Source: a virus. Taken from it: a stretch of DNA of 30,755 nt. Position 1 is the first letter of the stretch. Every line of letters starts with the position of its first letter. The notes beneath the pieces are model-generated. The model saw only the letters and a program-made list of their open reading frames with translations, was not told the origin of the DNA and searched no databases. The DNA lies in the IMG/VR virus record IMGVR_UViG_3300031998_000511, positions 1 to 30,755 of that record. One strand, written 5' to 3'. The translations under genes and the position numbers were made by a program. Shown one piece after another: positions 3,502 through 30,755 of this stretch.

Positions 3502-3536
3502 AAAGGCCCGCTTTAAAAGGCGGGCTTTCCTTTTTG
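3502..3536 (+). terminator. Rho-independent terminator
   Basis: Stem GCCCGC (3506..3511) / GCGGGC (3520..3525) with A/T extensions, followed by tttcctttttg. Confidence 0.75.
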
Positions 3537-3550
3537 AAAAAACTAATTTA
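3537..3550 (+). promoter_or_regulatory. Motif A copy 1 (AAAAAACTAATTTA), candidate late promoter or RNA signal
   Basis: Exact 14-mer immediately after the terminator, 27 nt upstream of ATG 3578, followed by AGGGT. Confidence 0.5.
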
Positions 3551-4681: not shown

Positions 4682-5954
4682 CTTTCTACCGCATCAAGAC
4701 CGCCTTTTTTTCAATAATTCACGAATAAAGGGGCTTTATTGCGGGCGCGGCGCTGGCAAATCGTTCTATATGATTACAAGCGCGGCTTGCGACCTTGTAC
4801 AAGGCTTGCGCGTCCTGTACTTTTGCCAGACGAACAGCGTAATGGAAGGCCAATTTTTGCCCTTCATCATAGAAACGCTTGAAAATTGGGGCTTTAGCCC
4901 GAAAGTCAACGAAAAGAAACATATTATTAGCTTGCCCAACGGCGGGAAGCTGTTTTATTTTTCCTATGAAAACTACAAAAAGAGCCGCGGCGCTACAAAG
5001 ATCCGCAAGATTTACTTTGACGAAATAGCGCTGGGGCCGAAGCCTTCACTTTTGTTTTCGGCGGTGGCGCCCTGTATGCGAGATTCGGGCGGCATTACCG
5101 AATTGATATTTGCCAGCACCCCGAACAAGGGTAGCGAATGGGATAAATGGGTAAAAAGCCTGAAGCCAGAAAAATTCGTTATTACGGGCGTCACGATGGA
5201 CGATAACCCGAAGGCAAGCGAGGAAGAAAAACAGCTTATCAAAGACCTTATTAGCGGCGATCCTAACTTTTTACGCCAAGAGTTCTACGGGGAAATTCTG
5301 GACGATGATTTAGCGTTTTGCGTATTGCACAGCGCCGACTTTCCGCAATTCCAGCAAAGCAGACGCGGCTTTGTTTCCATCGGTTGCGATTGCGCGGGCG
5401 AGGGGCGCGACAAGTTTATTTTTTCCGCCATTGACGAAAGCGGCATTTTGGAGCTGGTGGAAACAACGAAGGCCGACACACAGGCGCAATTTTCAATTGT
5501 ACGCGAATTGGTACACAAATACGATGCGCTGCAGATCGTAATAGACAATACGGGCGGTTTCGGCAAGGGGCTTTTTGACCTTTGCAAGCGGGCTTTCCTT
5601 GTCAACGGGCGGGAAGTTGAAGTTATCGGCGTAAACTTTGGCGAGGGCGCCGAAGATAAAAAGAGCTATGCCAACGCCCGCGCGGAAATGTACTTTGAGT
5701 TTGCCGAAGGTGTCAAGAACGGCTTTTTTGTTTCCAGCGAAGCGGCCCGCGAAGAATTGACGCATACAACTTACTTTAAGACCAATTCGGGCAAGGTTCA
5801 ATTGATCGACAAGGAAGAAATAAAGGCCCTTATTGGTCGTTCCCCCGACACGGCGGATTCGCTTTGCTTGGCTTGGTACAAGCGCAAGGAAATAAAGGCC
5901 CACGCTGACGCCCGACAGGTTGCGGCGGCGTTCCTAAAGGCTTTCGGGCATTAA
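4662..5954 (+). CDS. terL: Terminase large subunit
   Basis: Walker A is GLYCGRGAGKSF and Walker B-like is KIYFDEIAL. The C-terminal nuclease-type acidic motifs are IGCDCAGEGRDKF, VIDNTGGFG and SPDTADSL. I prefer ATG 4662 over the TTG at 4632. Confidence 0.9.
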   Translation: MRKIQIDFLPHQDRLFFNNSRIKGLYCGRGAGKSFYMITSAACDLVQGLRVLYFCQTNSVMEGQFLPFIIETLENWGFSPKVNEKKHIISLPNGGKLFYFSYENYKKSRGATKIRKIYFDEIALGPKPSLLFSAVAPCMRDSGGITELIFASTPNKGSEWDKWVKSLKPEKFVITGVTMDDNPKASEEEKQLIKDLISGDPNFLRQEFYGEILDDDLAFCVLHSADFPQFQQSRRGFVSIGCDCAGEGRDKFIFSAIDESGILELVETTKADTQAQFSIVRELVHKYDALQIVIDNTGGFGKGLFDLCKRAFLVNGREVEVIGVNFGEGAEDKKSYANARAEMYFEFAEGVKNGFFVSSEAAREELTHTTYFKTNSGKVQLIDKEEIKALIGRSPDTADSLCLAWYKRKEIKAHADARQVAAAFLKAFGH

Positions 5955-5966
5955 AAAACTAATTTA
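5953..5966 (+). promoter_or_regulatory. Motif A copy 2
   Basis: Exact AAAAAACTAATTTA overlapping the terL stop (TAA 5952..5954), followed by TGGGT. The ATGs at 5966 and 5972 follow directly. Confidence 0.45.
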
Positions 5967-8892: not shown

Positions 8893-9279
8893 GGTATGGT
8901 TGGAAGGGTAAGGGCAGAAACGGCCCCAGAACGCGCGTATTGTCGGGTACAATTTTGACGGAAAAAACGAATTGAGCAATAGGTAAGCAATTGCTTTTCA
9001 ATTGGTTTGTAATTGCTATGTGATTTTTTCACTTTCGGAAAGAAATTTTATAAAAAATCGTGAATGAAAGCGAAAAATTAAACAAAATGTTGAGTTTTTG
9101 AGCGAAAAACGCAGTTTTTCGTAATTAAGCAATTGCTTTGCTATTGCTTTGCAATAGGTAAGCTATTCTGTCTTATTGTCTATATTACTATTTTACTATC
9201 TATTTCTTTATTTTCTTTTGGTTCTTTTCTTTTTTTCTTTGCCAGTTCCGAAAAAAACTTTTTTATTGGAATTGTAGCC
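8893..9279. other. Long AT-rich non-coding region with palindromes, direct repeats and a polypyrimidine tract
   Basis: No ORF larger than a few codons on the + strand. AAGCAATTGCTT occurs at 8985..8996 and 9127..9138. CAATAGGTAAGC occurs at 8977..8988 and 9152..9163. CTATTGC-ttt-GCAATAG is at 9141..9157, AGCGAAAAA at 9069 and 9101, and a T/C tract at 9196..9240. Confidence 0.85.
9161..9240 (+). repeat. About 80-bp intergenic element, paralogous to 24121..24200
   Basis: The two elements are colinear. CTTATTGTCTATAT (9172..9185 = 24132..24145) and the 23-mer TTTTCTTTTGGTTCTTTTCTTTT (9211..9233 = 24171..24193) are exact, and roughly three quarters of positions match overall. Confidence 0.85.
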
Positions 9280-9293
9280 AAAAAACTAATTTA
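9280..9293 (+). promoter_or_regulatory. Motif A copy 3
   Basis: Exact AAAAAACTAATTTA followed by TGGTT, 71 nt upstream of the preferred scaffold start. Confidence 0.5.
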
Positions 9294-9320
9294 TGGTTAA
9301 AGGTGGAATTAACCGCCTTT

Positions 9321-9346
9321 CGTTCACGCGGAACGTACAAAACGCG
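9321..9346 (+). promoter_or_regulatory. Motif B copy 2 (hairpin CGTTC-ACGCG-GAACG plus AAAACGCG)
   Basis: Identical 15-mer to 4088..4102. It lies between motif A copy 3 and the GGAG/ATG of the scaffold gene. Confidence 0.45.
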
Positions 9347-9364
9347 TCTTGGAGCGTAAAGCTT

Positions 9365-10396
9365 ATGGCAATGACTACCGAAGAAGTAAACGAATACCTT
9401 GCACAGCAGAAAGCGGCACAGGAAAACGGAACTGAAACGGAAACCAATAACCCGCAAGGGAAAGAACCCGAACCAAAGACGGAAACGGCGGCTTCGCAAA
9501 CCGCAACGGCTGACGATGGCGAAGGCGAAGGCCCCGACAACCCACCCAGCGGCGCTGACGCTGGCGGCGAAGACGGAAGCGAAACCAAAGGCGGAACGCC
9601 CGAAGGTTCCGAACACTTGGCGGCTGGATCGGAAGGCGAACCCGATACAGAGAAAGACAAAAAGCCTACGGCGGAAGAACGTTGGGCAAAATCTTTCCGA
9701 AAAGAAAAAGACAAGCGGAAACGGCAAAACCAGCAATACCAAGCCGAGATTGAACGGCTAAAGCGTGAAAACGCCGAATTGAAGGGCAAGTTGGGCAATG
9801 GCGATTTCAAGGCTGACAAAGACAGCGTTTCGGCCCTTGTTAAGATGCAGACTAACGAAAACGAAATTTCGCGTTTGCAGACGGAACAGGTTAACAACCA
9901 GATGGCCGATGATATGGCGGAAAATGAACGCCGCGTAAATCTTTGTTTCCCAGACGAGAAAGACCGCCAAATTTACGCGCAGTTGCTCCAAAATTCGGGT
10001 TCGGCTTTCGTTGAGAAATTGGACGCCGCAGATCCCGAAGGGGTTATTTTGGGGTGTCTAGACGATTGCGAAATTTCGCCTATCGTATTGCGGGTTCTTA
10101 TGACGCGCCCCGCCTTCTTGAATGACATTTTGTCCAAGAAAACGAGGCACGGAAAGGAAGTTGCTTTTGACCAGCTTGTCAACCAATGCAAGGTAGCGGA
10201 CAAGATTATCCGAGCCAAGCAGAAGGAAAAAACGGCGCAAGCAAAGGACACCCTGAAGGCGGGCGCAAGGGCTGGTTTGCAGAACATCAAGCCGACAGGC
10301 CGACAAGCCAACAAAGGCGAAGGCGGCGGCGGGAACGTTGTAAAGAACGAAGCCTATTGGAACCAATTTTTGGGCGAACACCCGCGCGGGCGTTAA
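9365..10396 (+). CDS. Scaffolding protein (candidate)
   Basis: It lies between the portal block and the coat gene. It is acidic and low-complexity, with coiled-coil segments (QQYQAEIERLKRENAELKGKL). I prefer ATG 9365 (GGAG 10 nt upstream) to ATG 9293, which sits inside motif A. Confidence 0.55.
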   Translation: MAMTTEEVNEYLAQQKAAQENGTETETNNPQGKEPEPKTETAASQTATADDGEGEGPDNPPSGADAGGEDGSETKGGTPEGSEHLAAGSEGEPDTEKDKKPTAEERWAKSFRKEKDKRKRQNQQYQAEIERLKRENAELKGKLGNGDFKADKDSVSALVKMQTNENEISRLQTEQVNNQMADDMAENERRVNLCFPDEKDRQIYAQLLQNSGSAFVEKLDAADPEGVILGCLDDCEISPIVLRVLMTRPAFLNDILSKKTRHGKEVAFDQLVNQCKVADKIIRAKQKEKTAQAKDTLKAGARAGLQNIKPTGRQANKGEGGGGNVVKNEAYWNQFLGEHPRGR

Positions 10397-11651: not shown

Positions 11652-11692
11652 GAAAGTTTACTTTCTTTGCCTTGGCTCCTTACAAGGAACAG

Positions 11693-11722
11693 GAAGGCGG
11701 TAGCAATGCCGCCTTCTTTTTG
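11693..11722 (+). terminator. Rho-independent terminator after the coat gene
   Basis: GAAGGCGG (11693..11700) pairs with CCGCCTTC (11709..11716) around a tagcaatg loop, followed by tttttg. Confidence 0.85.
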
Positions 11723-11752
11723 TTATATTAAGGATAACGGGAGCCAAGAAAA

Positions 11753-12223
11753 ATGGAATTTAAACGAATATCAAGCAAGCGGCTTACAGAGCTGTTGACA
11801 GCGAAAAAGGGCGGGAGTATAACAACCGCCGAAAACGAGGAATTGGGCTTTTATGCCCAGAATTTCGCAAACATAATTTTGAGAACGCCGAAAATGCGGC
11901 GTTTTCTTTTTTTATACGATCCAAAAAAGGTTTATGACCTTGAAAACGAGATGCGGGCGCAAATATCCATAACGATTGTTGGCGCCTGTCCTTACAGCTA
12001 CGAAAAGAGCTTTGCAAAATCGTATTCGTATTGCCTTTATTGCGCGAACAGCGCCGCTTGCGGAGTTATTAGGCGCCATATTAGGCGCTTGAAGATTGAA
12101 GGGGTTATAAGGCATATTTCTAGCTTGTGGATAGCCGACCTTTTCCCATATCTTCACAAGGTTAGGAACCTAAACAGAAGCGCCACCAGCGAAAAAACTA
12201 ATTTATGTTTAGAGGAATTTTAG
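11753..12223 (+). CDS. Sigma-factor region-2-like small protein (T4 gp55-type late sigma candidate)
   Basis: 156-aa ORF with GGGAG 9 nt upstream. The segments NEELGFYAQNFANIILR..., ...RRFLFLYD...ENEMRAQISITIV... and ...YSYEKSFAKSYSYCLYCANSAACGVIRRHIRRLK follow the remembered sigma region 2 / gp55 pattern (hydrophobic helix, R-F-x-F-x-x-Y, EM..a..I, F-D-x-x-K...aY....N-a-f...I-K-K). This is not a computed alignment. Confidence 0.35.
   Translation: MEFKRISSKRLTELLTAKKGGSITTAENEELGFYAQNFANIILRTPKMRRFLFLYDPKKVYDLENEMRAQISITIVGACPYSYEKSFAKSYSYCLYCANSAACGVIRRHIRRLKIEGVIRHISSLWIADLFPYLHKVRNLNRSATSEKTNLCLEEF
12192..12205 (+). promoter_or_regulatory. Motif A copy 4
   Basis: Exact AAAAAACTAATTTA inside the 3' end of the sigma-like ORF, followed by TGTTT, 21 nt upstream of ATG 12227. 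Confidence 0.5.
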
Positions 12224-12226
12224 CTT

Positions 12227-12925
12227 ATGGTAAGCGTAAGGAACATAATTGTAGAAGCGTTGAGCCGCGCAACGCTGGCGAACCGCAAACAGGGCGCACA
12301 GCCTTCTTTGGTTGAAGATGCGTATATTAGGTTTTGCGGTATCTTGCGCGAATATTCCGACAACAATTTTATTACCGCCTATCGCGGCGAAGTTGAATTT
12401 GACGGATCCGCCGAACAGATTGAAATAAACGGCGCAGATATTCCAGCGGACGGGATAACGGACATCAAGGCGGCATATTACCGCTCGGACAATTCGCCCG
12501 ACTATTACCCGCTTAATTTCGTTTCGCTTGAAACTTTTTACGATTGTTCGCTTTCCGATTATACCTATTCTTACCAGCCTATAGGCGAAAACAAGTTTAG
12601 GCTTTATCTTAAGCCGCGTTTTGCCCAATTGCACAAGCGCGTAAAGCTTATCTACAACATAGAAATTAAACTAGGCATTGACGATGCCGTTAACTTGCCT
12701 ATCGTTTACACAGAATTGCTGACAAGGGCGCTTGCGCTAAAGATGGCCATTGACAAGCCGAGAGCGACACCAGACAAGCGTAACGAATTGCGCGCCGAAT
12801 TGGAAACGCTGGAAAACCAGCTTAAGGCCAACAATGCGGACAATAGGATTTTGACCCGCACCCCGCGCGACAGGTTCTTTAATATTGAAACACTAAAAAG
12901 CGGTTCTTTCATTTTCGGTAGCTAG
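12227..12925 (+). CDS. Head-to-tail adaptor, P22 gp4-like (candidate)
   Basis: The N-terminus NIIVEALSRATLANRKQGAQPSLVEDAYIRFCGILREY parallels the remembered P22 gp4 start (DLVRAALRKLGVAS...[20 protein letters not shown]). It lies directly upstream of a gp10-like gene. Confidence 0.5.
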   Translation: MVSVRNIIVEALSRATLANRKQGAQPSLVEDAYIRFCGILREYSDNNFITAYRGEVEFDGSAEQIEINGADIPADGITDIKAAYYRSDNSPDYYPLNFVSLETFYDCSLSDYTYSYQPIGENKFRLYLKPRFAQLHKRVKLIYNIEIKLGIDDAVNLPIVYTELLTRALALKMAIDKPRATPDKRNELRAELETLENQLKANNADNRILTRTPRDRFFNIETLKSGSFIFGS

Positions 12926-12928
12926 GTT

Positions 12929-14506
12929 ATGGCTAAAAAGTTTATAACTAACATTTGCGGCGGCGTAAAGCGTAGCGATATTAGGAAAGTTGGCCTTTCT
13001 GACGCTGTAAATATGTACCTTGAAGAAAAAGACCCTACAGAACAGGCTTTTACGCTCATAATGCGTTCTATTGACGGGTGCAGTACATATTGCACCCCGA
13101 AGGGCGAACCGCGCGGAATGTTCAAAGTTTCCCGCGCCTACGATGGCGAAGGATCCCCAGAAGTACAAAAGACATACGGCGTATGGGGCGAAAAGCTTTA
13201 CTTGCTTGAAGAAAACAACGCAATTGAAATTGGAACGCTGGCGACCAAAAGCGGCGTTTGCCATTTTTGCGAAACGGGCGGTTATGGTTCCGCGCACCCG
13301 CATTTAATCATTGTTGACGGAATAAATGTTTACGCCCTTAATACGGGCGTTTCCGTTGTCAACCAGCGCCAGCAATTTTTAGATCACGGCACAATTAAGT
13401 TGCCGTTGCGAGTAAACACAAACAATGTGTTTATCAAGCCGACCCATTGCGCGTATCTTTACGGGTATCTAGTTGTAAACGATTCTGGAACAGATGCGTT
13501 TTACACAAGCTACCAATACCCGTTTGAAGCTTACCCGACAACCGACCCGAAATATTACGATATTTTCCGCGTCAATACGGCGGCGTTCCTTGATTACGGC
13601 TTTGTGACCTATTCCGAATGGCAACCAGACAACACCCTTGCTTTGTTTGCCAACGGATCACGACTTTTTACTTTCGGATCGCGTTCTTTCCAAGTATTCC
13701 AATACAACAACGATGTAAACAACCCTTTCAACAGCCCCGATACGGCGGCGCAAAACATAGGCATAAAGGCTGTAAATTCGCTTTGTGGCCTTGGTTCTGT
13801 TGTTTGCTGGCTTGGCGGTTCCGATGTTGGAAACAATGGCGTATATGTGAACAGGGGCGGCGTTGAATGTGAAAGAATATCTACGATTGAAATTGAAAAC
13901 ATCATTGAAGATATTGGGGTACAGACTGACGCAATAGGCCAGATGTGGCAAGAAAAGCAACATACGTTCTATGCGCTCACTTTCCCCTACGGCAACGTTA
14001 CTTTGGTCTATGACTTTTTAACGGGCGCTTGGCACAAGCGGGCAACGCTTGGCAAGATGAACGCTTTGGAAAAATGGCGCTACAATTTCGCGACAATGAA
14101 CGAAAACGGCAAGATTCTTTTTGCCGACATTGACGCTTGCGTTGTTCTGGACAAGAACAAGTTTACAGAACACGATGGCAACTTGATTTTGAAAAAGCGC
14201 GTTGGCGGCGTTATCCTTTCCGACTATATGAATTTTGTTTGTGATTATGTGCAGATTTTCACGAACAACGGACAGAACAACGCCATTGCCGAAAACGCAA
14301 AAATCACGATCCGTTATTCGTTTGATGGCGCCACGTTCTCAACTATTGAACAGGTGCCAATTGGCCGAATAGGTCAATACGATTACGAAACGATGTTCTG
14401 GATAGGCGAATTTGGAAAATTCTTGACGCTTGAAATTAGCTGTTCCGAACCTTGCCCGTTTGCCCTTATGGGTATTCAATTTGGCGGCGATGCAATGGAG
14501 TTCTAG
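12929..14506 (+). CDS. P22 gp10-like tail hub / packaged-DNA stabilisation protein (candidate)
   Basis: 525 aa. The serial motifs (WGEKLYLL..., TFGSRSFQVFQY, ERISTIEIENIIED, TLVYDFLTGAWHKR, the C-terminal IRYSFDG...LTLEISCSEP.PFALMGIQF) occur in the same order as remembered P22 gp10 landmarks. Confidence 0.55.
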   Translation: MAKKFITNICGGVKRSDIRKVGLSDAVNMYLEEKDPTEQAFTLIMRSIDGCSTYCTPKGEPRGMFKVSRAYDGEGSPEVQKTYGVWGEKLYLLEENNAIEIGTLATKSGVCHFCETGGYGSAHPHLIIVDGINVYALNTGVSVVNQRQQFLDHGTIKLPLRVNTNNVFIKPTHCAYLYGYLVVNDSGTDAFYTSYQYPFEAYPTTDPKYYDIFRVNTAAFLDYGFVTYSEWQPDNTLALFANGSRLFTFGSRSFQVFQYNNDVNNPFNSPDTAAQNIGIKAVNSLCGLGSVVCWLGGSDVGNNGVYVNRGGVECERISTIEIENIIEDIGVQTDAIGQMWQEKQHTFYALTFPYGNVTLVYDFLTGAWHKRATLGKMNALEKWRYNFATMNENGKILFADIDACVVLDKNKFTEHDGNLILKKRVGGVILSDYMNFVCDYVQIFTNNGQNNAIAENAKITIRYSFDGATFSTIEQVPIGRIGQYDYETMFWIGEFGKFLTLEISCSEPCPFALMGIQFGGDAMEF

Positions 14507-20629: not shown

Positions 20630-20898
20630 AGGTCTTTTTAGAGCTTATAGCCAAGTATGGCGGCGCAAGCGGGCTTATTGCCGCGTTTTGCGTTTACATC
20701 GCTTGCGCCAACGGCGTAGACAAGGCGAAGGAAAGCACCCAGCAGAACTACAAGTTGTTTGAATACCGCGTTTTGACGCTGGAATCGCAACAGAAGGAAA
20801 CGGCGGCGCAATTCGGGGAGATACAGAAGGCGCTTTTAAACATCAATGTTTCTATTTCAAGGATTGAAACGCTTTTGGAAAAAGCGCCAAAAAACTAA
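20626..20898 (+). CDS. Small protein with one TM segment and a coiled coil (holin-like or tail-associated, undecided)
   Basis: A hydrophobic GGASGLIAAFCVYIACANGV segment followed by a heptad region. It overlaps the tailspike stop. Confidence 0.4.
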   Translation: MKVFLELIAKYGGASGLIAAFCVYIACANGVDKAKESTQQNYKLFEYRVLTLESQQKETAAQFGEIQKALLNINVSISRIETLLEKAPKN

Positions 20899-20902
20899 TT
20901 TA
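20889..20902 (+). promoter_or_regulatory. Motif A copy 5
   Basis: Exact AAAAAACTAATTTA spanning the stop TAA at 20896..20898, followed by AGGTT, 19 nt upstream of ATG 20922. Confidence 0.5.
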
Positions 20903-21631: not shown

Positions 21632-24088
21632 ATGAGAATTAACGCTTTAGGCAATACCGCCACCGACTTTGCAAACGATGACTATATAGTCATTGACGGA
21701 ACCACAAACGGCTCACGAAAAATGGCTAAAAGCTCACTTTTAAAAGTGACAAAAGAAAACGCAATAAAAGAAACTATTTCTAATTCTTTTGATCCTTCTA
21801 GAATTGAAGCGACAAAATATTTAGCTGGAGAAAGCGTTGTATATGAAGATTCTGTATATACATTTTTGGTTGATCATTATGGAGCTTGGGATAGCTCAAA
21901 GGTTCAAAAAGTTTTATCTTTAGATACTAAAACTAAAGACCACGCAAAATTAAAAAGTTGTAAATCTAAAGGATTTAATTATACTAAAGTATCGTATAAT
22001 TTTGGAAATAGAGCTTGGGGAATAAATCAAAAAATAAACGGATTTGTAAAAAGGGTTTCAGCTGTTTTAAATCCTTATTCTTCTATAGATGTTGTTTTTG
22101 TATCTAAACTAACAAAAGACTATAAAAAAATTTCAACGCTTGTAAATTCAACTTCAACAATTAAAGAAATTTCTGTTGATGTTGATGCTTACATAAATGG
22201 ATATATAGGATTGTCGGAAACTAGCGGTTTTTCTGTACTTCCTTTAGTTAAAAGAAATGACGGGTTTTGCAATGGTTTTGCATTTGTTTATAGTACCCTT
22301 AATTTTGAAGAAACAAAAAATTGGACTCCAGCAATAAGCATTGATTATTATGACATAGAAGATTATATAGACAAACAAGAAACAACATATACAAATATTA
22401 TATCTTCTAACGCTTCGCCAAGCTATGCAATAAACCAATCGTTTTCTAGAGCCGTTACGCTTAATAAAAGTTATAAAGGCAAAGTAAAGAATGTTAGTGC
22501 ATTTGTAAAAGCAAATAGCGAAATTGCAGTAGTAGTTTGCAATGATAACGATTTTACACCTTATATTGTATTGACTAATTCAACAAGTTCTGATTCTTGG
22601 ATTAGTGCAGATTGTGATATTAAATTAGACGATGGCGATTTTATAGGTATAATGCCTTTTGGTGGAACAACAGATGTTTATTGTCAAAGAAACAATGTTA
22701 ATGGCGGCGCAAGGTTCTATTTCACTAATACAGGCGTTTTTATAAATGAAAGCGATGTTTGGACAATAGCATTAAGATGTGTAATTGAAAGTAGCGTTAA
22801 AATTAGTGAAGAAAACGCAATTGAGATACCGAAAAATATTATTGTTCCTATTTATGGCCAATCATTAAGCGTTGGTGCTGACGCTACCCCGCAATTAAAA
22901 TCCGCTGGAATAATTAACGGAAATTCAATGAATGGTAAAGTAATTTGTACGTCTTTAAATATGACAACGCTTAATAGGTACGAATTGACTTTAATAAATG
23001 AATATGACCAAGAAACACCCGCAACAGGTTGTGTTTTGGGAATTTTTGAAGAATTAAGCAGGCTTACAAATATTCCAAAAAATTCTAAAGTGTGGGAAAC
23101 AATTAAGGTATTTGCTGTTTCTTGCGGCCAAGGATCTTCTTCGCTTGAGTCTTTGGCAGATCCAGACGGGACGCTTTATTCTGGTCTTATTAATGCCGTT
23201 ACCAGACTAAATACGTTAATAACTGACATTGGAGAAACAGCATTTATTCCAGCTCTCGTATGGATTCAAGGCGAAACAAATATGCGCTATGGCGTTACTT
23301 CGCCTTCTTATTACGCAGATGACTACAAAAATAAATTGTCTAATTTAGTTGCATCTATTAACACTGATTTTAAATCAATAACAGGACAGCTAGAAGATAT
23401 TAAGTGCGTTTGCTATCAAACTTCATCGCAGGGGTATATTAACGGGCAATATTACCAGCTAGATTGGAATTTTGTAAATATTCCTAAATTGTCAAAAGTT
23501 CCAATGGAGCAAATGCTTGCTGTAAGAGATTTAAGCAATTTTGTTGCAAGTGCTCCAGCATATACCATTGAACATAACGAAGATGTTGTTGGAAAAGCAA
23601 ATATTCATTTAACAAATGTTGGATCTAGGCATTTGGGGTATTTTTGCGGTAGCTCTATAGCTAATATCATATATGGTAAAAATCAAAAATGCGGAATTTT
23701 GCCAATATCTTACAATGTTGTTGGTAATGACATTACAATTAAATTTTTAGTTGAAAATGGAACATTGACAACAGATTCTTCTTTTGTAAAACGAATTTCC
23801 AATTATGGATTTTCTGTTATGACAAGTGGGAATATCGATATAATTACAAGTGTTGATATTTTTGAAGATTCTGTTGAAATTAAGTGCAGTCAAAGCCCTG
23901 TTGGCGCATTGTTAAGTTATGGTTGTATTGGAACAGATAACTACGATGGAAAAACAAAGGGCGCTAGAGGAAACTTGTGTTCAACATATTACAATTTTGT
24001 AGAAATTGAAAACAAAAAAATTGTCCAAAAAGAATTCTGTTATTCTTTCTATTGCGTTTTAGCGGCTGGGCAAAACAATATAGAATAA
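21632..24088 (+). CDS. Second receptor-binding fibre with a SASA/SGNH-type carbohydrate esterase domain
   Basis: 818 aa. The C-terminal half carries IVPIYGQSLSVGADA, LVWIQGETNMRYG and ANIHLTNVGSRHLG. These match the remembered sialate O-acetylesterase (SASA) landmarks GQSN, W.QGE.D and a His-containing block. Composition is markedly AT-rich from about 21730 onward. Confidence 0.6.
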   Translation: MRINALGNTATDFANDDYIVIDGTTNGSRKMAKSSLLKVTKENAIKETISNSFDPSRIEATKYLAGESVVYEDSVYTFLVDHYGAWDSSKVQKVLSLDTKTKDHAKLKSCKSKGFNYTKVSYNFGNRAWGINQKINGFVKRVSAVLNPYSSIDVVFVSKLTKDYKKISTLVNSTSTIKEISVDVDAYINGYIGLSETSGFSVLPLVKRNDGFCNGFAFVYSTLNFEETKNWTPAISIDYYDIEDYIDKQETTYTNIISSNASPSYAINQSFSRAVTLNKSYKGKVKNVSAFVKANSEIAVVVCNDNDFTPYIVLTNSTSSDSWISADCDIKLDDGDFIGIMPFGGTTDVYCQRNNVNGGARFYFTNTGVFINESDVWTIALRCVIESSVKISEENAIEIPKNIIVPIYGQSLSVGADATPQLKSAGIINGNSMNGKVICTSLNMTTLNRYELTLINEYDQETPATGCVLGIFEELSRLTNIPKNSKVWETIKVFAVSCGQGSSSLESLADPDGTLYSGLINAVTRLNTLITDIGETAFIPALVWIQGETNMRYGVTSPSYYADDYKNKLSNLVASINTDFKSITGQLEDIKCVCYQTSSQGYINGQYYQLDWNFVNIPKLSKVPMEQMLAVRDLSNFVASAPAYTIEHNEDVVGKANIHLTNVGSRHLGYFCGSSIANIIYGKNQKCGILPISYNVVGNDITIKFLVENGTLTTDSSFVKRISNYGFSVMTSGNIDIITSVDIFEDSVEIKCSQSPVGALLSYGCIGTDNYDGKTKGARGNLCSTYYNFVEIENKKIVQKEFCYSFYCVLAAGQNNIE

Positions 24089-24120
24089 CCAATAGTTTAG
24101 CAATAGCTTAACGATAGCGA

Positions 24121-24200
24121 AGCAATCTTGACTTATTGTCTATATGACTATTTGTCTATATTGCTTTGCTTTTTCTTTTGGTTCTTTTCTTTTGTAACTT
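24121..24200 (+). repeat. Intergenic element paralogous to 9161..9240, containing two direct TTGTCTATAT copies
   Basis: See 9161..9240. TTGTCTATAT occurs at 24136..24145 and 24152..24161. Confidence 0.85.
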
Positions 24201-27804: not shown

Positions 27805-28896
27805 ATGAAATACAAATTTACAGAAGAAACAAAAGTTTATTTTGGCCGAACTTTTCATAGAATTGTATGCGTTACGGCTTTCGCAAACGTGGCCGCTGGA
27901 GAACTTGGCGGCTGGATTGAAAAAGAACAAAATTTAGATCAATGCGGCAATGCGTGGGTCTACGGCAATGCGGAGGTCTGCGGCAATGCGAAGGTCTACG
28001 GCGATGCGAAGGTCTACGGCAATGCGGAGGTCTACGGCGATGCGAAGGTCTACGGCGATGCGAAGGTCTGCGGCGATGCGGAGGTCTGCGGCAATGCGGA
28101 GGTCTACGGCGATGCGAAGGTCTGCGGCAATGCGGAGGTCTGCGGCAATGCGAAGGTCTACGGCGATGCGGAGGTCTGCGGCAATGCGAAGGTCTACGGC
28201 AATGCGAAGGTCTACGGCGATGCGGAGGTCTGCGGCAATGCGTGGGTCTACGGCAATGCGAAGGTCTACGGCGATGCGGAGGTCTACGGCAATGCGTGGG
28301 TCTACGGCAATGCGAAGGTCTGCGGCAATGCGGAGGTCTGCGGCGATGCGGAGGTCTACGGCGATGCGGAGGTCTGCGGCGATGCGGAGGTCTACGGCAA
28401 TGCGAAGGTCTGCGGCAATGCGAAGGTCTACGGCGATGCGGAGGTCTGCGGCAATGCGAAGGTCTACGGCAATGCGAAGGTCTACGGCGATGCGGAGGTC
28501 TGCGGCAATGCGGAGGTCTACTGCAATGCGAAGGTCTGCGGCAATGCGAAGGTCTACGGCGATGCGGAGGTCTGCGGCAATGCGAAGGTCTACGGCAATG
28601 CGAAGGTCTACGGCGATGCGGAGGTCTGCGGCAATGCGGAGGTCTACGGCAATGCGAAGGTCTACGGCGATGCGGATTATATCGTATTGAAAAATAATTG
28701 GAGTTCTGGCCGATATTTTACCTATACGCTATCTAACAAGATGTGGAAAGTTGGTTGCTTCTTCGGAACAGGCGAAGAATTGATAAAAAAAGCGTATGCA
28801 GATAGCGAAATTTCGGGCAGATGTTACGAAGCTTCCGTCAAGTATGTTGAAGAACTGATTAGAATAAAGGAAGGTTTAAAATGCATAACGGAATAA
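27805..28896 (+). CDS. Hexapeptide-repeat (predicted beta-helix) protein with short unique N- and C-terminal domains
   Basis: 363 aa. The N-terminus (...FHRIVCVTAFANVAAGELGGWIEKEQNLDQ) is followed by 40 units of G-[ND]-A-[KEW]-V-[YC] and then a roughly 70-aa C-terminal domain. GGGGG lies upstream of the ATG. Confidence 0.8.
   Translation: MKYKFTEETKVYFGRTFHRIVCVTAFANVAAGELGGWIEKEQNLDQCGNAWVYGNAEVCGNAKVYGDAKVYGNAEVYGDAKVYGDAKVCGDAEVCGNAEVYGDAKVCGNAEVCGNAKVYGDAEVCGNAKVYGNAKVYGDAEVCGNAWVYGNAKVYGDAEVYGNAWVYGNAKVCGNAEVCGDAEVYGDAEVCGDAEVYGNAKVCGNAKVYGDAEVCGNAKVYGNAKVYGDAEVCGNAEVYCNAKVCGNAKVYGDAEVCGNAKVYGNAKVYGDAEVCGNAEVYGNAKVYGDADYIVLKNNWSSGRYFTYTLSNKMWKVGCFFGTGEELIKKAYADSEISGRCYEASVKYVEELIRIKEGLKCITE
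27946..28677 (+). repeat. 18-bp tandem repeat, about 40.7 units (GGC RAT GCG RRG GTC TRC)
   Basis: Read unit by unit. Variation is confined to four positions plus three TGG codons and one TGC for GGC. 28396..28521 and 28522..28647 form a 126-bp tandem duplication that differs at one base. Confidence 0.95.
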
Positions 28897-30250: not shown

Positions 30251-30755
30251 ATGGCTAAAGAAGTTGCAATTTTTGACGAGAACGATTTTAAGCAGATAGT
30301 TTTCACACCAGCCGCGCAAGATGCGTACAATTTCGCATTGCAGAACGCGGGCTTGGAAATGGAAGCTGGTAGCGGCGAAGAAGCCGACTTTATCCAGCAC
30401 CGAAACAACAAAAGCGGCTGGCGCGATCTTTGGGAGCTTAAAACGCTTCTTGAAAAGGGCGCCGCTTCCATCAAGGAAGTTGTAAAACACACTTTCAATA
30501 TTGGCGGCTGGGAAAGCTTGCCCGAAGCGAAAGAAAACAACGGCGTAAAGATTAGCTGGAGCAAGCAAAGCTATACTTACGAATACCAAGTTGACGGGTG
30601 CGGCGCTTCCATTATGGCGGCTTTACAGGAAAAGGGCCTTTGTAGCGTTGAACAGGTTTTAAGCCTTGTTCCCGTCAACATCTTCGCGAAGGCGGCTGGC
30701 GTGAGCCAAGAAAAGATGTTTGAAATGTTCCCAGAATTCATTTGCGCGAAGGCAA
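30251..30755 (+). CDS. 5' part of the junction-spanning hypothetical CDS. It runs off the window end and continues at base 128 after removal of the duplicated 127 bp.
   Basis: ATG 30251 has AAAGGGGG upstream, and there is no stop before the window end. It is not in the ORF track because it is open-ended. Confidence 0.7.
   Translation, partial: MAKEVAIFDENDFKQIVFTPAAQDAYNFALQNAGLEMEAGSGEEADFIQHRNNKSGWRDLWELKTLLEKGAASIKEVVKHTFNIGGWESLPEAKENNGVKISWSKQSYTYEYQVDGCGASIMAALQEKGLCSVEQVLSLVPVNIFAKAAGVSQEKMFEMFPEFICAKA
30629..30755. repeat. Terminal direct repeat, copy 2
   Basis: Identical to 1..127. Confidence 0.95.

Follow-up and report, generated by a model that had tools for sequence, protein, structure and literature searches.

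A putative gp55-like sigma factor and a recurrent 14-base late-gene motif in a 30-kb podovirus genome

INTRODUCTION

What is a small open reading frame (ORF), equipped with a terminator and a promoter-like sequence of its own, doing in the middle of a block of phage head and tail genes? This question is raised by a 156-amino-acid (aa) ORF in the IMG/VR virus record IMGVR_UViG_3300031998_000511, of which positions 1 to 30,755 form the stretch of DNA analysed here (30,755 nucleotides [nt]; hereafter, the window). The initial annotation, made from the sequence alone, described the ORF as a small protein with the layout of sigma region 2 and of T4 gp55, and combined it with five copies of a 14-base sequence, motif A, into a late-transcription switch. 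Region-2-only sigma factors are known from large T4-like myoviruses, in which they need a co-activator and the replication clamp, and our literature search found no small podovirus described with a gp55-type factor.

Our analysis suggests that the ORF product probably redirects host RNA polymerase to the 14-base late-gene motif. For the full model, in which the ORF encodes a phage single-domain sigma factor that turns on motif A promoters, we estimate a probability of roughly 0.6. The proposed late switch gains support from the predicted fold and from the conserved architecture of terminator, promoter-like element, and motif A, but not from sequence statistics.

RESULTS

The 156-aa ORF is a conserved gene with a narrow family

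The ORF lies between the coat terminator and the adaptor gene, as first annotated (Table 1), and every peptide block that had been quoted from its translation was found in its place. A word-indexed search of 5.8 billion proteins returned 18 homologues, and a profile search of the same proteins brought the number to 33, with 38-93% identity; no twilight-zone matches up to E = 10 appeared beyond these 33 orthologues. An exhaustive HMMER scan of 1.84 billion cluster representatives returned four clusters only, all of them orthologues of the ORF, and no bridge from the family to known sigma families was found in these protein-wide searches. The family is therefore narrow. When all pairs among eight genomes were compared, differences within the ORF fell on codon positions 1, 2, and 3 in the numbers 1,770, 1,446, and 2,501, and this third-position excess is expected of coding sequence in the ORF frame. 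Across the whole range of identity, the ORF was found at the same place in all related genomes retrieved. It is a real, conserved, and syntenic gene.

Within the ORF, the window also contains a terminator-like hairpin (Table 1), which shows one compensatory change in the related contig L002. The hairpin is absent from more distant relatives, where the peptide TPKMRRF is encoded by other codons. It is possibly an attenuator that limits expression of the factor, or else a by-product of codon choice.

The predicted fold resembles gp55 and sigma region 2

The AlphaFold model of the window protein, built from 19 sequences, has a predicted local distance difference test score (pLDDT) of 79, with values above 87 over most of residues 11-80 and 91-120. 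A second model, of the relative P0027 (42% identical, 33 sequences), has a pLDDT of 86.5. Both models consist of four or five core helices and a 41-residue final helix; in the window protein, the helices span residues 8-20, 25-43, 46-55, 63-78, and, for the long one, 90-130, followed by a disordered tail (137-156).

Foldseek comparison with the PDB gave the same best match for both models, namely 7d7c_F, the T4 gp55 chain of an RNA polymerase open complex. The match had a probability of 0.96 and template-modelling scores (TM) of 0.48/0.53 for the window model, and a probability of 1.00, TM of 0.56/0.61, and a root-mean-square deviation (rmsd) of 3.4 Å over 121 columns for the P0027 model. Further matches of the window model were SigB, SigA, SigS (sigma-S), WhiG, and an RpoS region 2 fragment, while those next in rank for P0027 were sigma-E region 2, sigma-S, WhiG, SigB, and sigma-32, its sigma region 2 matches having TM of 0.40-0.46 and rmsd of 3.4-6 Å. 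Non-sigma entries in both PDB lists stayed below TM 0.3. Among predicted viral structures (BFVD), the top three matches of the window model (probability 1.00, E 0.02-0.06, TM 0.51-0.64) comprised two annotated phage sigma factors, namely an "RNA polymerase sigma factor" and the "sigma-like factor" of Klebsiella phage KPV15, and one uncharacterised protein of a Tenacibaculum phage.

The argument from fold draws on the consistency of these matches across two models and two libraries and not on single E-values. Taken in this way, the models make it likely that the ORF product has a gp55/sigma-region-2-like fold. Modelling and structural comparison, which had been suggested as a check, thus favor the layout originally read by eye, a family assignment that the initial annotation had rated its weakest link, with 7d7c_F at the top of both PDB lists, whereas sequence and profile similarity do not. 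The absence of region 4 also held: the protein stops after the long helix and the disordered tail, and it has no Sigma70_r4 match.

Motif A marks late-gene sites across related genomes

Motif A has the consensus AAAAAACTAATTT(A/G), usually followed 6-8 nt later by (T)AGAGG. The consensus was taken from 36 pattern matches in eight genomes, 34 of which stand at late-gene sites and 2 of which are chance matches. All five exact copies reported for the window were recovered, each on the plus strand (Table 1), where about 0.0002 exact copies of the 14-mer would be expected by chance in 2 x 30.7 kb; the early block of the window contains no copy. In the eight genomes, the motif recurs at four or five orthologous late-gene sites with diverged flanks. 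Copies follow the large terminase gene, precede the scaffold gene, occupy the 3' end of the ORF, and precede the gene that comes after an approximately 800-aa protein. As the initial annotation had noted, copy 4 (AAAAAACTAATTTA) lies inside the 3' end of the ORF, and in relatives the motif is found in, or just after, the 3' end of the sigma-like gene. At most copies in the eight genomes the arrangement "motif, 6-8 nt, (T)AGAGG, 5-9 nt, ATG" recurs. No conserved -35 region was found upstream of the 36 matches, and the eight-genome comparison revealed neither a dyad nor an upstream operator beside the motif.

Two of the copies indicate the level at which the motif acts. Copy 1 follows a terminator hairpin at a sharp early/late boundary that is conserved in the related contig L001, and since upstream transcripts, ended by the terminator, cannot carry this copy, it acts on DNA. 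Since the scaffold copy lies about 70-90 nt from its ATG, the motif is probably not a purely translational signal. The tail of the ORF protein leads to the same level: it is disordered and not conserved except for the peptide EKTNL, whose codons at 12190-12204 (GAA AAA ACT AAT TTA) are motif A itself, and the peptide is lost where the motif lies beyond the stop codon. Because EKTNL translates motif A, its conservation reflects a DNA-level constraint. From its sequence context, motif A is best read as a putative single-block late promoter, and transcription of the adaptor unit would then start at about 12210-12212.

The leader downstream of the scaffold copy (9294-9367) and the orthologous leaders of related contigs L001-L021 contain hairpin-forming sequence, e.g., GGTGGAATTAACCGCC, that differs between genomes. 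GGAGCGnAAnGCTTATG is conserved around the scaffold start codon, and consensus folding of this 5' leader recovered no more than a helix of 4 pairs close to that codon.

The ORF is preceded by a terminator and an early-type promoter-like element

The terminator that had been reported upstream of the ORF was located as a 12-pair hairpin with a T-run (Table 1). A hairpin and T-run occupy the same place in 8/8 genomes compared, with a different stem sequence in each. Next comes TATATT (11724-11729), directly preceded by TTGT; positions 11721-11729 read TGTTATATT, an extended -10 pattern that occurs once in the window, and the sole occurrence of TGNTATATT in the window is likewise this promoter-like element. 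In five of the seven related genomes, TTGTTAT(A/T/C)TT or TTGTTAAATT stands right after the terminator, and the other two have a TATATT-type AT-rich stretch. The order in relatives is terminator, promoter-like element, ribosome-binding site, ORF.

The initial annotation had equated this TATATT with the hexamer of the early promoters, and the comparison agrees with it. On the plus strand, TTGT(N)TATATT is found elsewhere in the window only at 9176 and 24152, as the TTGTCTATATT elements of a repeated 108-nt module, and one of the two module copies heads the early block. Since its element is of the same type, the ORF would carry an early-type promoter despite its position in the late region, and it would be shielded from late read-through. 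The module itself (9126-9233 and 24086-24193; also 8972-9017) is repeated at 76% identity and consists of iteron-like GCAAT(T/A)GCT units phased 11 nt apart, then the TTGTCTATATT elements, and then a CT-rich tract, TTCTTTTGGTTCTTTTCTTTT. Relatives share this tract in front of their scaffold genes. The module may serve as an origin, as an operator, or as an early-promoter region.

A promoter and a terminator of its own are also typical of "morons", and we considered whether the ORF might be such an accessory gene in a permissive slot, serving, for example, in anti-defence or host takeover. The initial statement that P22-like genomes have no gene at this position fits the gene order of P22 itself, but not for the nearest cultured phages that share the head-completion module. 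In Vibrio phage 1.184.A (L023, 4538-5056), one small hypothetical ORF of 172 aa lies between the coat and adaptor genes, and in Rhodoferax phage P26218 (L022, 3961-5267) there are three, of 132, 66, and 148 aa. Homology of these ORFs with the 156-aa family was rejected, similarity not being detectable, and across the wider phage group the slot seems to receive varying insertions. Such variability would suit a moron. Accessory genes are usually patchy in their distribution, however, whereas this ORF is present in every related genome retrieved, and the fold evidence points to sigma factors. We therefore regard an accessory role as very improbable.

A model for late transcription and the points that weigh on it

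In the model that we propose, the ORF product would be a minimal, single-domain promoter-specificity factor of the gp55 type, in which a sigma-region-2-like helical core has its fourth helix extended and region 4 is lacking. The ORF would first be transcribed from its own extended -10 promoter (11720-11729) by host RNA polymerase carrying the primary sigma, and the conserved upstream terminator would keep this transcription independent of the surrounding late genes. The protein would then occupy the beta-prime clamp helices of the host core polymerase, where the host sigma would otherwise sit, and direct the enzyme to AAAAAACTAATTT(A/G), with transcription starting about 6-8 nt downstream, at (T)AGAGG. 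Five late units would thereby be turned on, namely the small genes with terminase, portal, scaffold-coat, adaptor-to-tail, and tailspike. A scan of approximately 40 ORFs revealed no further sigma domain and no domain of an RNA polymerase or a Q-type antiterminator.

Several findings weigh against this model. Sigma70_r2 and Sigma70_r4 (Pfam) had no match at E up to 10 in the first 19 family members scanned, and searches of the ORF and its family against PHROG, NCBIfam, and PDB sequences gave no meaningful match. When the family alignments (A1, with 19 members, and A4) were compared by hhalign with T4 gp55 and with A3, an alignment of 10 gp55 sequences taken from T4 and a range of T4-like phages, the probability was below 1% and E was 0.2-0.6. 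The Foldseek E-values are weak (0.02-0.3), and helical bundles can match by chance. Of the three acidic residues by which gp55 contacts the clamp helices, only E70 has an acidic counterpart in a tentative alignment, with none for D74 or E77. The scanned ORFs include neither a gp33-like co-activator nor a sliding clamp, and the protein lacks a conserved clamp-binding tail. Motif A, at 14 bp, is longer than the T4 late promoter TATAAATA and unlike it; at several copies, a transcript begun at the implied start would have only a very short leader, with the ribosome-binding site at its 5' end; and the motif could be read by a host sigma factor instead. Finally, the coat-adaptor slot is occupied rather than empty in the wider phage group.

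Profile searches, which the initial annotation had suggested as a check, thus gave no significant match to Sigma70_r2 or gp55 with HMMER or hhalign. The failure of the ORF against Sigma70_r2 is not informative, since T4 gp55 itself scores 13 bits against a cut-off of 24 bits; two other gp55 homologues score nothing. Comparison of the ORF with 50,697 phage records by tblastn gave no match. In 12 of the 19 members, DUF7667 gave a weak, sub-threshold N-terminal match (best E, 0.0018), and no mention of DUF7667 was found in the literature.

Co-occurrence is the only link between the protein and motif A. That the one recognises the other is inferred, as are RNA polymerase binding, expression timing, and transcription start sites. 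The protein could instead be a sigma-region-2-like binder of RNA polymerase that does not read motif A, acting as a competitor or modifier of the host sigma (for host shut-off or appropriation), and a host sigma or a different protein of the phage would then read the motif. The fold matches speak for polymerase binding only, and both motif A and the Y91-S-Y93-C-L-Y-C block of the protein are invariant across the family, so that covariation between protein and motif gives no test. Moreover, a genome scan for motif A with a ribosome-binding site returned, among the matches listed, scattered single matches in unrelated taxa, which are not informative on host use. Against this alternative, the block just named is the most conserved of the family and, in a tentative alignment, falls at the position of the gp55 base-flipping pocket, which suits DNA recognition better than mere occupancy of the polymerase. 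Motif A is missing from the early genes and is therefore probably not read by the host primary sigma, and no other candidate regulator was found. On balance, a binder that does not read the motif seems unlikely, and we retain the single-domain sigma factor as the preferred model.

Conserved residues and a family-specific cysteine pattern

Permissive hhalign settings produced a collinear but non-significant alignment of ORF residues 1-132 with gp55 residues 6-130. We considered the gp55 pocket residues N13, L54, R57, F86, H95, Y97, and T99 and the acidic residues of helix H3 that contact the clamp helices (E70, D74, and E77). In this alignment, the family-invariant residues S8, Y81, Y91, and Y93 fall on the pocket residues N13, F86, H95, and Y97; I42 is paired with L54 and T45 with R57, and E66-M67 fall on gp55 E70-M71. 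This correspondence, read from a sequence alignment, may serve as a lead and not as a test.

C79, C94, and C97 are invariant (33/33), and C103 is present in 30/33 members and replaced in the other three. Together they form the pattern C-X14-C-X2-C-X5-C (codons within 11990-12061), followed by the basic stretch RRHIRRLK. The pattern, which is absent from gp55, falls on the loop and the beginning of the helix that would correspond to the base-flipping region of gp55. At this predicted DNA-contact region it may bind Zn or an Fe-S cluster, or it may be without meaning. The spacing also fits a WhiB-like Fe-S protein, a candidate that we rejected, as the family has no Pfam Whib match and its structural matches are to sigma factors, including the WhiG entries, WhiG being itself a sigma factor and not a WhiB protein.

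The cysteines bear on a further alternative, in which the likeness of fold is fortuitous or convergent and the ORF encodes some other small helical factor, such as a cysteine- or metal-dependent DNA-binding late activator or an accessory protein of head assembly or completion. P2 Ogr and lambda Q are zinc-dependent. The cysteine pattern and the basic stretch behind it would fit such an activator, the Foldseek E-values are non-significant with no profile similarity beside them, and the ORF lies among structural genes, at a slot where 1.184.A and P26218 have unrelated small ORFs. Yet sigma matches dominate the top of three Foldseek searches with two models, and in the PDB lists only sigma matches reach TM above 0.4, at an rmsd of 3-7 Å. 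In addition, there would be no need for a structural protein to have a separate promoter set behind a conserved terminator, and an activator is disfavored by the lack of a dyad or upstream operator at motif A. A chance resemblance of fold is thus improbable, in our judgement.

Within the sigma-factor model, the cysteines would allow a more specific and decidedly tentative version, which we consider doubtful: the family might be a metal-bearing (Zn or Fe-S) single-domain sigma, with C79, C94, C97, and C103 holding a metal centre at the position of the gp55 base-flipping pocket. We know of no described sigma factor with an intrinsic metal cluster. If this were true, late-promoter recognition in a phage of an anaerobe would depend on, or sense, the metal or redox state, and no tailed phage would have a smaller self-contained late switch of sigma and promoter, this one needing neither clamp nor co-activator.

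Comparison with known systems

The structure of gp55 comprises five helices, of which H1-H4 are sigma-region-2-like and H4 is unusually long (PMC7892883). The ORF product resembles T4 gp55 (7D7C/7D7D) in its small size (156 versus 185 aa), in its predicted five-helix layout with a sigma-region-2-like core, a long last core helix, and no region 4, in the aromatic residues at the start of the long helix, and in a candidate promoter that is a single AT-rich block without a -35 region. It differs in having no detectable sequence similarity, in the extra short helix at 46-55, and in the cysteine pattern. The setting differs as well, in that this is a podovirus with P22-type portal and head-completion genes and not a large myovirus. 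Full late transcription in T4 needs the gp33 co-activator, the sliding clamp, and a clamp-binding tail; here, the tail and the gp33 and gp45 partners are missing from the protein and from the scanned ORFs of the 30-kb genome, respectively.

Region 2 of sigma-70 factors is expected to bind the beta-prime clamp helices and the non-template strand of the -10 element. The corresponding structures (E. coli sigma-E domain 2, PDB 2MAP; sigma-S; SigB) rank second and below among the fold matches, and the ORF product differs from them by its much longer last helix, by the absence of a Pfam Sigma70_r2 match, and by the absence of region 4 and thus of -35 recognition.

Podoviral members of the sigma-70 family have been described, namely phiEco32 gp36 and the sigma-like protein of phage 7-11, which have regions 2 and 4 and belong to genomes of about 77-90 kb (PMC8948821). 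As we propose for the window, these podoviruses pair host RNA polymerase with their own specificity factor for middle or late genes. Judged by these descriptions, the ORF is set apart by being region-2-only, by being unrecognisable from sequence, and by its 30-kb genome. P22 gp23, lambda Q, and RinA/ArpU-type systems use one late promoter with antitermination, or an activator upstream of one promoter (PMC3152322). They share with our model a small phage-encoded regulator that switches on the morphogenesis genes. Here, in contrast, the late region is split by several terminators into units that each have a motif A copy of their own, and no Q or RinA domain was found in the scanned ORFs.

If the model is correct, the minimal sigma design would be more widespread than thought and would have been missed by sequence searches. 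One small protein and a 14-bp motif would offer a compact system in which to study promoter opening by a single sigma domain, and the pair might serve as an orthogonal expression switch. The model would also be the first regulatory model for this phage lineage.

Genome organization and neighbouring genes

Table 1. Features of the window around the 156-aa ORF and copies of motif A
Feature	Position	Strand	Remarks
Motif A copy 1	3537..3550	+	About 9 nt after terminator hairpin 3503-3528 (11 pairs); early/late boundary; orthologue in L001 at ~718
Motif A copy 2	5953..5966	+	End of large terminase gene, before ORF 5966 and portal gene
Motif A copy 3	9280..9293	+	Scaffold ATG (9365) about 70 nt downstream; hairpin-forming sequence follows the motif
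Probable major coat protein, 407 aa	10428..11651	+	Last gene of scaffold-coat late unit; upstream neighbour of the 156-aa ORF
Intrinsic terminator, 12-pair stem and T-run	11691..11723	+	Would end the scaffold-coat unit and insulate the ORF
TTGTTATATT, extended -10-like (TGnTATATT) putative promoter of the ORF	11720..11729	+	Host primary sigma is the presumed reader
Shine-Dalgarno-like GGGAG	11739..11743	+	9 nt 5' of ATG; read from sequence; GGAG or GAGG at same place in relatives
Predicted gp55/sigma-region-2-like protein, 156 aa	11753..12223	+	ATG 11753, TAG 12221-12223
Terminator-like hairpin (10 pairs) and T-run inside the ORF	11881..11913	+	Codons for RTPKMRRFLF; also present in L001 and L002
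Motif A copy 4, AAAAAACTAATTTA	12192..12205	+	In last codons of the ORF (EKTNL); putative late promoter of adaptor-to-tail unit
AGAGGA ribosome-binding site and adaptor ATG (12227)	12211..12229	+	Read from sequence
Probable head-completion adaptor, 232 aa	12227..12925	+	Label from position and size only; downstream neighbour of the 156-aa ORF
Motif A copy 5	20889..20902	+	Before ORF 20922 and tailspike-like gene

Positions 1-127 of the window are identical to 30629-30755, and this exact 127-bp terminal direct repeat indicates that the window is a complete genome of about 30.6 kb. Its plausible genes are on the plus strand throughout. The early block runs from about 24358 across the ends to 3499 and includes genes for an ERF recombinase (29608), SSB (402), an HTH_39 protein (176), and a PNKP-type phosphatase (3044); the late block extends from 3537 to 24088. 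The coat label comes from BLASTP, in which the protein matched an annotated coat protein, that of Vibrio phage 1.184.A, with E = 1e-4. Directly 3' of the adaptor gene lies a gene for a gp10-like protein (12929-14506; phrog_578, E = 4e-56), which matches PF11134 in relatives. Rfam and tRNA scans of the window gave no matches.

Every related contig retrieved has the same gene order: scaffold, coat (407-412 aa), the ORF (144-163 aa), a 232-235-aa protein, and the gp10-like "Phage_stabilise" protein. Motif A copy 2 is conserved in L001, L002, L004, L017, L019, and L021. The related contigs are metagenomic and about 30-32 kb long, with sample names that indicate ruminant gut assemblies, and one family member was deposited as a protein of a Fibrobacter sp. 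metagenome-assembled genome. A scan of GTDB representative genomes found no relatives of the phage, and the nearest cultured phages show only 22-25% identity in the gp10-like protein. The window thus appears to belong to a phage lineage that has no cultured close relative and is common in ruminant gut metagenomes.

Two further genes stand out in composition. In the 818-aa tailspike-like gene (21632-24088), which has a weak SASA esterase match, the 2-kb interval 22001-24000 has a G+C content of 0.33, compared with 0.39-0.53 in all other 2-kb intervals of the window; this drop suggests that the receptor-binding part was recently exchanged. In ORF 27805-28896, an 18-nt tandem array (27837-28700) of at least 38 phased copies encodes a beta-solenoid protein, with Pfam matches to the YdcK repeat (E = 3e-21) and bactofilin (E = 8e-11), and a collagen-like reading of the array was rejected in favor of this beta-solenoid product.

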